Source: a virus
Reading direction: 5' to 3' (one strand)
IMG/VR virus record: IMGVR_UViG_3300044632_001278
DNA length: 64,000 bases
The notes beneath the pieces are model-generated. The model was not told the origin of the DNA. It searched no databases and saw nothing but the letters and a program-made list of their open reading frames with translations. A program made the position numbers and the translations under genes. Shown here piece after piece: positions 3,741 through 7,818 of this stretch; the first letter of the stretch is position 1, and each line of letters opens with the position of its first letter.

Positions 3741-4577
3741 ATGGCATTAGATCTAAGTAAACTAAAGAGTCGTTTGAACTCCCTTTCAAACACAAATCAA
3801 AAATCCAACTTGATTTGGAAACCAAAGCCAGGTAAACAAGTAGTTCGTATCGTACCATATAAGTACGTACCTGAGAATCCGTTTATCGAACTAAAGTTTC
3901 ATTACAATATCAATAACAAGACTTATCTATCTCCTGATAGTTTTGGTCGGCCAGATCCAATCGTTGAATTTGCTAACCGTCTGAAGAAGACTGGTTCAAA
4001 GGAAGATTGGCAGATGGGTCGTAAGATGGAACCAAAGATGCGTACTTTCGTACCAGTCATTGTTCGTGGTGAAGAAGGAGAAGGTGTCAAGTTCTGGGGA
4101 TTTGGAAAGCAAGTTTATCAAGAACTTCTTTCAATCATCAGTGATCCTGATTTCGGTGATATTACCGATCTAACCAATGGTCGTGATATCGTTGTAGAAT
4201 TCAAGACAGCTGAAGGCGGAGCTAGTTTCCCAGAAACCAGCATTCGTGTTAAACCAAACGTAAGTGTCGCCGTAGATCCAAAGAATACCCAACTCTTGGA
4301 TGCTCTAAAGGCACAAGTAAACATCTTGGATTTGTTTGAAGAACTATCCTATGATGACTTGAAGGAAGTTATGGATAAGTGGTTGAATCCAGAATCAGCC
4401 GCAACCGAAGTTGCAGCTGAACCTACTCCTAGTGGAGATGATGATGAAGCTCCGTTTTCAACATCACCAGCAGTAACCGCAACTGCTACAGCTAAGGCAC
4501 CAGCTTCACCAACTGCTGCCAAAGCAAAGGGTAAAGACAGTGTAGAACAAGCATTTGATGACTTGTTTAACTCCTAA
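3741..4577 (+). CDS. T4 gp32-like single-stranded DNA-binding protein
   Basis: WKPKPGKQVVRIVP, VKFWGFGKQVY, DITDLTNGRDI; acidic C-tail AFDDLFNS; lies next to recA. Confidence 0.85.
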   Translation: MALDLSKLKSRLNSLSNTNQKSNLIWKPKPGKQVVRIVPYKYVPENPFIELKFHYNINNKTYLSPDSFGRPDPIVEFANRLKKTGSKEDWQMGRKMEPKMRTFVPVIVRGEEGEGVKFWGFGKQVYQELLSIISDPDFGDITDLTNGRDIVVEFKTAEGGASFPETSIRVKPNVSVAVDPKNTQLLDALKAQVNILDLFEELSYDDLKEVMDKWLNPESAATEVAAEPTPSGDDDEAPFSTSPAVTATATAKAPASPTAAKAKGKDSVEQAFDDLFNS

Positions 4578-4588
4578 AAAATAAAAAT

Positions 4589-4622
4589 AAGCCGGTGGAG
4601 TTTTTATACCCCACCGGCTTTC
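4589..4622 (+). terminator. Intrinsic terminator-like hairpin after SSB
   Basis: AAGCCGGTGG...CCACCGGCTT 10-bp stem followed by a short T-rich tail. Confidence 0.65.
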
Positions 4623-4636
4623 TAGTTATATACGTT

Positions 4637-5782
4637 ATGGCAAAGAAAAGTGTTACAAAAGATACATCGGGTCAACGTGACGAATTAATCGAAATGTTGG
4701 CGAATGAGCTTAACAAAGCAAATAAAGATGGTGGTAAAATTGCACATTTCCTAGATGAACAAGATAATCCTTCAGAAATTACTGATTGGATTAGTACTGG
4801 CTCTTCTATTTTGGATCTTGCAATTAGTAATCGTCCACACGGCGGTCTACCAGTTGGTAAGATGGTTGAATTCAACGGACTTGAAGGTACTGGTAAGAGT
4901 CTATTGTCGGCACACGTTGTCGCAGATACACAGAAGAAGGGTGGAGTCGCTGTAGTAATTGATACTGAAAACGCAGCTGCGCCTGAGTTCTGGAAGAGTC
5001 TTGGTGTAGATTTGTCTAAGCTACTATATGTTCAATGTGAAACCGTTGAAGATATTTTTGCTCAGATGGAGAAGATGATCGCGATTGTTCGTAAGAGCAA
5101 CAAAGATCGTATTCTTACAATCATTGTAGATTCTGTAGCAGCAGCATCTACTAAAGTTGAATTGGAAAGTGATCACGGTAAGGATGGATTTGCAACGGGT
5201 AAATCTATTATTATCAGTAAGGCAATGCGTAAGATTACTACTATGATTGGTAAACAGAAAGTATTGACTGTATTTACTAATCAACTACGTCAGAATTTAA
5301 ATGCTATGGCATTTGGTGATAAGTACGTAGTAAGTGGTGGTAAGGCTTTAGCATATCATTGTAGTGTACGTGTTCGTTTGAATAATGCCGGTAAACTCAA
5401 GAAGGGTGAAGAAGTCATCGGAAACGAGTGTAAGGCAGTTGTTATCAAGAATCGTATGGGACCACCTCAACGTCAGGCCAATTTTGATATCTATTTTGAT
5501 AGTGGAATTGCTGACTATGGCAGTTGGATTAAAGTTCTAAAAGAACAAAATCTAATTAAACAGGGTGGTGCTTATTATACTTATAAAAAGAACGATGGAA
5601 ACGAATGGAAGTTCCAATCCAAAGACTTTGTAAGTGTAATGCAGAGTGACAAACAATTGGGTGAAGAAATTTACCTGAAGATTTGTGACGCTGTAATTAT
5701 GAAATACAAAGATCCCAATAGTCAAATTATTGAGGATGCTGTTGTGGATACACACGAAGAAACTGCAGGCAACGAAGAATAA
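4637..5782 (+). CDS. recA: RecA/UvsX recombinase
   Basis: ISTGSSILD, Walker A GLEGTGKS, IDTENA, IVDSVAA, NQLR, GGKALAYH, KNRMGPP; likely start is ATG 4637. Confidence 0.93.
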   Translation: MAKKSVTKDTSGQRDELIEMLANELNKANKDGGKIAHFLDEQDNPSEITDWISTGSSILDLAISNRPHGGLPVGKMVEFNGLEGTGKSLLSAHVVADTQKKGGVAVVIDTENAAAPEFWKSLGVDLSKLLYVQCETVEDIFAQMEKMIAIVRKSNKDRILTIIVDSVAAASTKVELESDHGKDGFATGKSIIISKAMRKITTMIGKQKVLTVFTNQLRQNLNAMAFGDKYVVSGGKALAYHCSVRVRLNNAGKLKKGEEVIGNECKAVVIKNRMGPPQRQANFDIYFDSGIADYGSWIKVLKEQNLIKQGGAYYTYKKNDGNEWKFQSKDFVSVMQSDKQLGEEIYLKICDAVIMKYKDPNSQIIEDAVVDTHEETAGNEE

Positions 5783-5796
5783 TACGTTGATAGGAT

Positions 5797-5848
5797 GTTT
5801 TTCCGCATTGCCTACTATTTATTAGTATGGATAACAATGCGGAAAAAC
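5797..5848 (+). promoter_or_regulatory. 14-bp perfect inverted repeat enclosing the late-promoter-like motif and start codon of the endonuclease gene
   Basis: GTTTTTCCGCATTG (5797-5810) pairs with CAATGCGGAAAAAC (5835-5848); loop holds TATTTAT and ATG 5827. Confidence 0.75.
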
Positions 5849-6759
5849 TCTTTTTTGAAGACCGATCTGAACGATTATATCAAATCTTTATAAAAGATGA
5901 ATCAATATGTGGATTTACTTCTTTATTTAAACTGAATAAAATTGGTAGCAAAACTGGGGAAAAAATAAAAAAATATTTATATAATAAATATGGTGAAACT
6001 TATTTGAAAAAAATAAGTGCTGTTAGAACGTCTAAAGCTGCTCATCAAAAAAGAAACAAAGATAGTTATTTTATTTCTTCAGAAAGAAGACAAAAAATGT
6101 CTGTCGGTATTAAAAAATATTATAAAAATAATCAGTCCGCTAAATCTAGATGTAGGGATTTAATGATTAAACATTGTTTACCAAAGTGCCAAACAATGGA
6201 GAGTAAAATAAAACGAGTAAAGAGTAGAGACTGGTATAAACCCAGTGAAGACACTAAACAAAAAATGTCTCAATCTCAACTTGGAAAGCCATTAACAGAA
6301 GAACATAAGTTAAAATTAAGAAAACCAAAGAAAACCAAACGATCTAATTTTAGACATACTACTGAAACAAAACACAAATTATCGTTAATTACTAAAAATC
6401 AGTGGAAAAGTGGAATTCACAAACCAATTTTTAAATCTAAAGGACAGCAGGAAGTAATTAGATTGTTAAAAGAACAAGGATATTCAATTCAAGATGAATA
6501 TGTTGTTGGGGGGAAGCCATACGATGTGTTTGTAAAAGAAAAAAATTTATTAATAGAATTTAATGGTACTTATTGGCACAGAGATCCTAGATTTTTTACA
6601 TCGTCCGATGAAGTTATTAAAATATGGGAAAAAGATAAAAATAAAATGTTGATTGCTGAATCGAATGGGTATATAATAAAAGTTATATGGCAACACGATT
6701 GGGAACAATGTAAAGACAAAAATATATACATTAAAAAACTATTAAATGAGCAACTTTGA
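5827..6759 (+). mobile_element. Free-standing homing endonuclease (NUMOD3-like repeats plus Vsr/DUF559-type PD-(D/E)XK domain)
   Basis: SEDTKQKMS, LTEEHKLKL, HTTETKHKLS repeats; C-terminal YDVFVKEKNLLIEFNGTYWH...GYIIKVIWQHDW; inserted between recA and the nuclease gene. Confidence 0.8.
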
Positions 6760-6874
6760 CAACAAAGAAATGAAGAAGTTATTTTCTTTATTTCAAAATA
6801 TAGAAAGCGATTCCGTCACCGGAGGACTTAAAAAATCACTTAATAGTGATGTCCTTTTGGTTGACGGATTGTAG
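6746..6874 (+). CDS. N-terminal 42-aa segment of RNase H/5'-3' exonuclease (not in ORF track)
   Basis: MSNFDNKEMKKLFSLFQNIESDSVTGGLKKSLNSDVLLVDGL-TAG; ends in the first catalytic strand VLLVDG; stop overlaps the GTG of the next ORF. Confidence 0.75.
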   Translation: MSNFDNKEMKKLFSLFQNIESDSVTGGLKKSLNSDVLLVDGL

Positions 6875-7818
6875 TGAATACTTACATTCGTAGTTTTATG
6901 GCCATTCCTTCACTCAATGAAGATGGGTTACACACTGGGGGTATTGCTGGTTTCTTGAAGAGCATTGGATATGCAATTAAATTACTTTCTCCTACCCGAG
7001 TTATTATTGTATTTGATGGTAAAGGTGGTAGTCAGAAACGCAGAAAGATATATCCAGGTTACAAAAACGGCAGAAAGACTGATATTCGTCTCAACCGTAA
7101 TTACGAAGAATTATCTTCATCACAGATTGAATCTGTTAACTTCAAAAAAGAATTGATTCGTACTGTAAATTATTTGGACACGTTGCCTGTAACAGTTATG
7201 GCAATTGATCAAATAGAAGCGGACGACACAATTGCTTATTTAGCTAAAGAAACTTTTAAGGACAGTAATGTAACAATTATGTCTACTGATAAAGATTTTC
7301 TTCAACTAGCAAGTGACAAGATTAAAATCTGGAGTCCTGTAAAAAAGAAAATTTTTGGTTGTAAAGAAATAGTGGATGAATATGGAATTACTTGCAATAA
7401 CTTTGTTTTATACAGAGTTATGGAAGGTGACGTTAGCGACAACATACCTGGACTAGATGGTGTGGGTTTAAAACGTGTAGTAAAAGCATTTCCATTTTTA
7501 TCAGACGGTCAACAATATGGATTACAAGAAATTTATAATTACTCTGAAAACAACAGAGGTAAATATAAAATATACGATACTGTATTGGATAATAAGTTGT
7601 TACTAGAAAGAAATCACTCTCTGATGCAATTGAGTGATACGCAGGTTCAGTCATTTACACAATTACGTATAGAAGAAATAATAAAGACTCCTATTCGTAA
7701 AATAGATAAAATGACTTTTACGAAGTTGATTACAGAAGACAAAATGTGGAATAATATCCCAAATTATCACATTTGGTTGAATGAGTGTTTTGGCAAACTA
7801 AACAGTTTCATCGAATAA
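6874..7818 (+). CDS. rnh: T4 RNase H-like 5'-3' exonuclease/flap endonuclease, C-terminal segment
   Basis: NTYIRSF, VFDG, YKNGR, EADD, STDKDFLQL, GDVSDNIPGLDGVGLK all intact; first catalytic Asp lies in the upstream frame. Confidence 0.88.
   Translation: MNTYIRSFMAIPSLNEDGLHTGGIAGFLKSIGYAIKLLSPTRVIIVFDGKGGSQKRRKIYPGYKNGRKTDIRLNRNYEELSSSQIESVNFKKELIRTVNYLDTLPVTVMAIDQIEADDTIAYLAKETFKDSNVTIMSTDKDFLQLASDKIKIWSPVKKKIFGCKEIVDEYGITCNNFVLYRVMEGDVSDNIPGLDGVGLKRVVKAFPFLSDGQQYGLQEIYNYSENNRGKYKIYDTVLDNKLLLERNHSLMQLSDTQVQSFTQLRIEEIIKTPIRKIDKMTFTKLITEDKMWNNIPNYHIWLNECFGKLNSFIE

Follow-up and report, generated by a model that had tools for sequence, protein, structure and literature searches.

In the 64,000-nucleotide (nt) stretch of viral DNA analyzed here (IMG/VR record IMGVR_UViG_3300044632_001278; the whole stretch is called the window below), a mobile cassette of about 1.1 kb that carries a homing-endonuclease-like gene has replaced the first 42 codons of a 5'-3' exonuclease gene and left a 5-nt gap, TAGTG, behind it; a short translational hop probably restores the enzyme. 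For the wider group, we see about an even chance that the homing endonucleases found in T4-like phages of fresh water come with a small recoding module, composed of a hairpin, a stop and a near-cognate landing triplet 5-11 nt further on, which is hopped by ribosomes and doubles as an immunity mark. Both readings are built from comparison of the window with its relatives, which were collected as a close sample of 80 loci (L-numbers denote loci of relatives, and haplotypes come from independent metagenome contigs) and then widened with divergent queries; L102 used as a query gave no additional relatives.

An exonuclease gene broken at its catalytic core

The features of the broken gene, all on the + strand, are the following.

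6746..6871, +: start of the 5'-3' exonuclease as brought by the cassette, 42 codons (MSNF...DVLLVDGL), including strand beta-1 and the first catalytic Asp
6807..6872, +: upstream RNA hairpin; its 3' arm is formed by the V-D-G-L codons and it ends at the proposed take-off codon
6869..6871, +: UUG (Leu42), final sense codon ahead of the stop and proposed site of take-off
6872..6876, +: 5-nt insert TAGTG, that is the stop UAG (6872-6874) plus UG
6874..6876, +: proposed landing triplet GUG, equal to UUG at positions 2 and 3; as GTG it could also serve for a restart
6877..7818, +: remaining 313 codons and stop of the 5'-3' exonuclease, with AAU (Asn) as the codon at which decoding would be taken up again

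The upstream 42-codon open reading frame (ORF) reads ...SDVLLVDGL and ends at the TAG at 6872-6874, and the downstream ORF (6874-7818) lies in another frame and reads (V)NTYIRSF...; removal of TAGTG rejoins VDGL|NTYIR. Judged by its sequence the broken gene is the 5'-3' exonuclease/flap endonuclease (RNase H) of a T4-like phage, and the acidic motifs FDG, EADD, SxDKD and GDxSDN of such exonucleases are present, with the first Asp supplied by 6746-6871. The downstream ORF scores 95.6 bits against Pfam 5_3_exonuc_N (PF02739) and aligns only from profile position 10, whereas in the uninterrupted homologue L001 the domain starts at profile position 2 and runs across the junction, which places the break inside the catalytic domain. 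In an AlphaFold model of the intact homologue L004 (mean predicted local distance difference test score, pLDDT, 83.6) the break falls between the central strand beta-1 (residues 35-40) and helix alpha-1 (residues 41-51). The original prediction had placed a 14-nt overlap between the endonuclease ORF and the nuclease start, and a 5-nt insertion about 113 nt past the endonuclease stop in the most conserved codons of the neighboring gene, and all of this holds: the overlap is at 6746-6759 (ATG at 6746), TAGTG starts 113 nt after the stop, and the flanking residues D40, G41, L42, N43, T44 and R47 are invariant in 13 intact homologues. With the identical TAGTG allele on 19 distinct junction haplotypes and 12 further insert types at the same boundary, the insert is not an assembly error, and we give practically no weight to a sequencing or assembly artefact.

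Inserts of several lengths and one rule

Among close and divergent relatives we found 13 insert types of 5, 6, 7 or 11 nt, all at this one codon boundary and all beginning with an in-frame stop, for which TAG, TAA and TGA are each used. Moreover, the triplet before the Asn codon equals the pre-stop codon at two of three positions in 12 of the 13 types (chance p = 2e-9, or 5e-7 when related types are merged). Seven types have triplets that differ at the wobble base only (UUG/UUA, CUC/CUU, CUU/CUC, CUU/CUA, CUU/CUG, ACC/ACA), so that both encode the same residue, and in five types, the window's included, the landing triplet differs by a first-base G (UUG or CUG/GUG, CUC/GUC, ACU/GCU). Written out from take-off codon to landing triplet, examples are UUG-UAG-UUA, CUC-UAA-CUU, CUU-UGA-CUC, CUC-UAGC-GUC, ACU-UA-GCU and CUU-UGAAGAAG-CUG. 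One insert is shared by L093 and L094, whose endonucleases are 61% identical, and a common insert in spite of such divergence means that the insert is old. In 8 of 13 types the stop is followed by C, and in none by G, which may be a weak termination context, a point confounded with the landing triplet. Only two inserts occurred among the 79 usable loci of a marine metagenome sample, and the element is thus largely confined to freshwater clades.

An alternative genetic code was ruled out by the three different stops and the mostly frame-shifting inserts, and a micro-intron by the length of the insert, 5 nt being too short for any known splicing structure. The window has no tRNA gene and so gives no sign of a suppressor tRNA.

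Recoding of other kinds, chosen according to insert length, is a further candidate: frameshifting by -1 or +2 where the insert has 5 or 11 nt, by +1 where it has 7 nt, and stop read-through where it has 6 nt, with one or two extra residues at the Leu-Asn junction. A stop in the A site and nearby RNA structure do also stimulate frameshifting of the prfB type, but the site has no slippery heptamer, a pairing check on the sequence shows the +5 triplet to pair better than the positions reached by a +2 or -1 slip, the extra residues would land in an invariant motif, and four mechanisms would be needed at one codon boundary; we therefore regard such recoding as very unlikely. The hop is favored because no single frameshift or read-through fits all gap lengths, and a hop gives the wild-type protein for each of them.

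A hairpin behind the proposed take-off codon

In the window, positions 6807-6872 fold into a hairpin of -30.6 kcal/mol (z = -4.5). Such a hairpin, ending no more than 3 nt from the take-off codon, was found in each of the 20 distinct insert-bearing sequences (mean z -6.1), with the D-G codons paired at a probability of at least 0.95 throughout. None of 60 insert-less sequences that were folded has a hairpin of this position together with comparable strength; their structures are weak (-9 to -14.5 kcal/mol) or placed differently, and the insert-less relatives of L103 (L276 and L277) do not have this hairpin. A 6-bp core is paired in 19 of 19 aligned sequences and carries compensatory GC/AU changes; in three lineages in which the Asp codon has switched synonymously from GAC to GAU, the 5' arm has changed from GUC to AUC to match. 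None of 500 shuffles and none of the slid controls reaches the covariation score, several G.U pairs point to the sense-strand RNA as the molecule that folds, and the 5' arm is kept in L103 and L097 though these read it in different frames. Naive (insert-less) L001, L004, L023 and others have a hairpin of their own (z -4 to -7) located 57 to 12 nt upstream of Leu42, which pairs a 5' arm containing AAGGAGG with the S-D-I-L-L codons.

The hop that we propose would proceed as follows. With UAG in the A site the ribosome would pause, giving time for the peptidyl-tRNA-Leu to leave UUG, and the hairpin, refolding at the mRNA exit behind the ribosome, would pull the mRNA 5 nt forward, an idea that has been advanced for T4 gene 60. 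The tRNA would then re-pair with GUG in the P site, where mismatches would be tolerated, and decoding would resume at AAU to give wild-type VDGLNTYIR, the hop junction being ...DVLLVDGLNTYIR. Some ribosomes would terminate instead and release the 42-residue peptide, the sequence of which is conserved.

Alternatively, the gene may now encode a split enzyme, in which ribosomes stop at UAG and restart at the GTG at 6874, the hairpin acts as a coupling device opened by terminating ribosomes, and parts of 42 and 314 residues assemble non-covalently. The stop/start overlap within TAGTG, with a weak GGA 5 nt upstream, and the purifying selection on the first 42 codons would fit such an arrangement, and working enzymes split by endonucleases exist in T4 gp39/gp60 and Aeh1 NrdA (10.1101/2022.08.31.505936). 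We nonetheless think it unlikely, since landing triplets are mostly non-start codons: 10 of the 12 other insert types have no usual start before the Asn codon (UUA, CUU, GUC, GCU, AAA, CUC, CUA, ACA), the exceptions with a usual start being only CTG|TAGTG and the 11-nt CUG type. Nor is an ATG conserved further on. A split enzyme also leaves the two-of-three match to the preceding codon without a reason, and it would have to be reassembled across a break between strand beta-1 and helix alpha-1; in the L004 model residues 13-32 are poorly ordered and docking tails are not visible.

Is the interrupted gene still under selection?

Each of 25 distinct interrupted downstream proteins is full length (309-326 residues) with catalytic motifs as in the intact genes. 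For the 42 cassette codons, comparison of insert-bearing lineages with endonucleases of only 60% identity gives a ratio of nonsynonymous to synonymous distance (dN/dS) of 0.1-0.3 at synonymous distances of about 1; in the downstream part dN is 0.06-0.2 and dS is saturated.

These values bear on the possibility of a knock-out allele, in which the insert kills a dispensable nuclease and persists by hitch-hiking or through immunity, with frequent recombination with intact alleles producing the selection signal. T4 rnh is non-essential, and the insert-bearing downstream parts match local insert-less backgrounds, so that their conservation may be borrowed. Against this, none of the 25 distinct interrupted genes has a second lesion, and the low dN/dS belongs to codons that are specific to the cassette. 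Furthermore, the stop-first rule, the landing-triplet rule and a covarying hairpin would be pointless in a dead gene, and many lineages have lost the endonuclease and kept the insert. We consider a knock-out quite unlikely.

A cassette that moves and decays

The cassette and its left flank, again all on the + strand, comprise these features.

4595..5782, +: uvsX/recA-like recombinase gene (Pfam RecA, 182 bits); left homology flank, outside the cassette
~5781..6876, +: mobile cassette of about 1.1 kb, made up of leader, endonuclease gene, replacement 42-codon nuclease start and 5-nt insert
5781..5815, +: leader, a possible insertion scar; resembles a decayed copy of the NTYIRSFMAIP codons just 3' of the insert
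5792..5852, +: endonuclease-start hairpin (-27.3 kcal/mol, z = -6.9) that encloses the ATG at 5827
5827..6759, +: free-standing homing-endonuclease-like gene for a protein of 310 residues, assigned by profiles, AlphaFold and Foldseek

The 80 close relatives occur in three states: naive, with an intact nuclease and its resident 126-nt gene start directly after uvsX; with endonuclease and insert; and with the insert only. The original prediction had taken endonuclease and insert for a mobile unit, and they do travel as one block; the unit is larger than was claimed in that it also includes a foreign 42-codon gene start and the RNA hairpin. This is best seen in L089 and naive L079, which have 98.6% identity as far as the uvsX stop and 99.5% from the post-insert Asn codon on, and between these points L089 has 1,097 nt of window-like sequence (endonuclease 92%, gene start 98% protein identity) where L079 has its own 126-nt start. 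These border positions define the unit as ~5781-6876 of the window, with the insert as its right border. L036 and L037 form a second presence/absence pair at the site.

The cassette occurs in backgrounds of 78-100% downstream protein identity, with both borders sharp (uvsX stop on the left, insert on the right), and the post-insert sequence tracks the local background. Its 42 codons show 93-100% protein identity among window-type cassettes (mostly 98-100%, with L071/L072 at 90%) and 60-64% to the resident start of naive close relatives. Naive and invaded relatives were found together in sample 3300007735 (L055 and L008). Such allele comparisons across backgrounds show that the cassette moves between phage genomes as a single block and that the insert is inherited and ancient.

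Alleles that have the insert without the endonuclease retain 20-40 nt at either end of the endonuclease region, and the ends of the deletions vary, which indicates that the endonuclease was lost several times (at least three) with the insert staying in place. L015 has a chimeric gene start and no insert, which indicates that the insert was lost there by a crossover inside the gene start. As to the origin of the element, L092 retains a decayed resident gene start upstream of its endonuclease in which the ILLVDGL codons are replaced by 12 unrelated bases, followed by a copy of NTFLRCF. Collinear 33-nt alignments between leader and resume region gave p = 0.16 for the window, 0.03 for L089, 0.02 for L096 and 0.04 for L097 against shuffles, so that the view of the window leader (5781-5815) as a scar of the original insertion is suggestive only. 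Together, the L092 remnants and the leader copies suggest that the element arose by an insertion about 30 nt 3' of the junction plus a duplicated gene start, and that both target copies had to be broken.

At five loci (L219, L225, L227, L240 and L241) 1-2 kb of other sequence lies between uvsX and a nuclease gene without insert.

The endonuclease and the proposed protection of its site

The endonuclease had been called NUMOD3/Vsr-type; the predicted fold of its C-terminal part is indeed that of I-Bth0305I and Vsr, but the Pfam matches stay under threshold, at 31.7 bits for MTES_1575 (cut-off 38.2) and 16 bits for NUMOD3 (cut-off 20.4). It matches the endonuclease families PHROG 559 (E = 2e-16) and PHROG 3339 (E = 4e-11), and a sequence search of the PDB with it gave no match. 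Its AlphaFold model has a pLDDT of 81.8, with the C-terminal domain predicted with good confidence, and the top Foldseek match is 3r3p, the catalytic domain of I-Bth0305I (E = 1.6e-4, template modeling score 0.71 by target), followed by the Vsr structures 1cw0 and 1vsr. As modeled, the protein is a helical N-terminal region with weak NUMOD3-like repeats joined to a Vsr/I-Bth0305I-like nuclease domain (about residues 205-300). Fourteen endonuclease homologues share the pattern E...D...EFNGTYWH.D...D..K, with E224, D233, E244-H251, D253, D270 and K273 invariant. I-Bth0305I is thus the best structural match of the C-terminal domain at 24-25% identity, and it too is a phage endonuclease with a long N-terminal DNA-binding region; it is a Vsr-like (PD-(D/E)xK) enzyme encoded in an intron of a Bacillus phage recA, whereas the window enzyme is free-standing and of predicted fold.

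Endonuclease homologues, even those with as little as 33% identity, all have uvsX on one side and this nuclease on the other. Their phages carry nucleases with no more than 34-60% identity to that of the window, so that the association with the site is old. Across 111 junction haplotypes we counted 72 naive, 19 with the insert only, 17 with both and 3 with the endonuclease only. The insert is thus present in 17 of 20 haplotypes that have the endonuclease versus 19 of 91 that do not (Fisher odds ratio 21, p = 1e-7, uncorrected for relatedness), and all loci that bear a window-type endonuclease have it. Strict linkage, which the original prediction expected of a survey of relatives, does not hold: 19 of 36 insert haplotypes are without the endonuclease, mostly as deletion derivatives, and three loci have it without the insert.

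On the proposed scheme the endonuclease would cut naive alleles near the VDGL|NTYIR codons, and the insert, given its position at the border and its association with the endonuclease, would separate the two half-sites and protect carriers. The free-standing T4 endonucleases SegF, SegG and MobE engage in intron-less homing; they resemble the present case in that a free-standing gene between conserved genes cuts the naive neighbor and is copied with flanking markers. They differ in that the T4 carriers are protected by scattered substitutions, where the protection here would come from a frame-breaking insert. An insert-less clade (loci L173, L176, L177, L179, L180, L183 and L185) has VDAL for the otherwise invariant VDGL, and L099, which has an endonuclease and no insert, has IDGY at the junction; these changes may be a substitution-based escape from cleavage.

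The hairpin around the endonuclease ATG (5792-5852) has TATTTAT in its loop, and a comparable start-codon hairpin (z <= -3.6) with the loop motif is found in L050, L093, L094 and L096. In L103 a strong hairpin stops just short of the endonuclease ATG, and those of L092, L095 and L099 are weak. By analogy with T4 I-TevI, such a hairpin could limit translation to transcripts that start within the loop.

Weighing the proposed hop

Several observations count against a hop, or against parts of the evidence for it. No type has the same triplet for take-off and landing, the window's own pair (UUG to GUG) differs at the first position, and L097 (CUA/AAA) is the exception to the two-of-three rule, with a match at one position of three. 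In close insert-less relatives the gene start also folds into a strong hairpin, a different one whose end lies 12 nt further upstream, and part of the structure signal is therefore a family trait. Conservation of the downstream part could come from recombination with intact alleles, and all of our statistics ignore shared ancestry. The stop/GTG-start overlap of TAGTG makes a restart possible in the window allele. L095, L099 and L104 (3 of 20 endonuclease haplotypes) have the endonuclease without the insert, which is thus not the sole way to coexist with it. Finally, synthetic stop-hops are inefficient (about 1%) and T4 can dispense with rnh, so that a weak or null allele could be tolerated.

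Relation to known recoding systems

To our knowledge, bypassing as a used mechanism is essentially restricted to one bacterial-virus case, T4 gene 60 and its homologues, and one yeast mitochondrion. Bonocora et al. in 2011 reportedly described the gene 60 bypass as part of a MobA homing-endonuclease element. This precedent (Manning & Atkins, bioRxiv 10.1101/2022.08.31.505936) is similar to our element in many respects: an endonuclease and a coding gap travel together as a mobile unit that occupies a replication gene, the gap lies in invariant catalytic codons (the DG of Toprim there, DG-L of the nuclease here), a stop directly follows the take-off codon, take-off and landing triplets are related, and the element brings its own copy of adjacent coding sequence. 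In both, the endonuclease is often lost with the gap staying, and the gap is thought to protect from self-cleavage. However, the gap of gene 60 is 50 nt long, and the gaps here, at 5-11 nt, are too short to hold a take-off stem-loop or an internal Shine-Dalgarno sequence; instead a long upstream hairpin has its 3' arm ending at the take-off codon. The T4 endonuclease is of the HNH type, unlike the Vsr/I-Bth0305I-like enzyme here, which also lies upstream of the whole gene rather than splitting it. The target gene is another one, the landing triplet is never identical to the take-off codon, and the cassettes have no sequence homology.

The synthetic stop-hops of Weiss et al. (1987) in E. coli are close in form, with matched codons flanking a stop so that 9 nt give one amino acid, and +5 and +6 events have also been described for them (PMC5009743). 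Relatives of the window have exactly this form in UUG UAG UUA and CUU UGA CUC; the E. coli sites are engineered, whereas those here are natural, conserved and accompanied by a hairpin, and would be hopped. The same review states that natural hopping over an in-frame stop was not known (PMC5009743, 2016). It also covers the ribosome-skipped 'byps' of Magnusiomyces capitatus mitochondria (Lang 2014, Nosek 2015; PMC5009743), which are likewise many short mobile inserts in coding sequence with tolerant matching of take-off and landing sites, but which are 27-55 nt long, reside in a mitochondrial genome and have no link to an endonuclease gene. A literature search found no paper on this interrupted nuclease class.

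If true, the inserts would be the first natural family of short stop-hops and a natural test bed for mRNA refolding behind the ribosome as the driver of forward bypassing. Their graded series (gaps of 5, 6, 7 and 11 nt, with varied stop, landing triplet and hairpin) would make the rules of short hops testable by reporter. It would also follow that an endonuclease can invade invariant catalytic codons without an intron or intein, a third route for a selfish endonuclease into the most conserved codons of an enzyme. Present annotation renders genes of this kind either as two ORFs or as pseudogenes.

Locus and neighboring genes

The window is the replication module of an uncultured T4-like lake phage. 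A nucleotide search found no DNA match to it among GenBank phages. A gp32-like single-stranded DNA-binding protein gene (3741-4577) comes first in the gene order, then uvsX, the 310-residue ORF, the exonuclease in its two frames (6746-6874 and 6874-7818), a gene for a DnaB-type helicase, and finally nrdA. Among cultured phages, the nuclease has its nearest relatives in Microcystis phage Mel-JY01 and Flavobacterium Immutovirus, at 36-42% protein identity, and their loci have the gene order of the window with an intact nuclease and no ORF between; among the cultured relatives searched no laboratory strain with the element was found.

Two other genes of the module are, or appear to be, interrupted in relatives. 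In L017 (1797-3740), L097 (685-2205) and L100 (1357-2450) an intervening stretch of about 1-2 kb splits uvsX near residue 232 and codes for another Vsr-like endonuclease, a distant relation of the first, and Rfam gave no group I intron in the relatives with interrupted uvsX. The helicase gene after the nuclease is apparently interrupted in L057 (4942-6993) and also in L011 and L074, and the gap in L057 holds an endonuclease-like ORF (28% identity).

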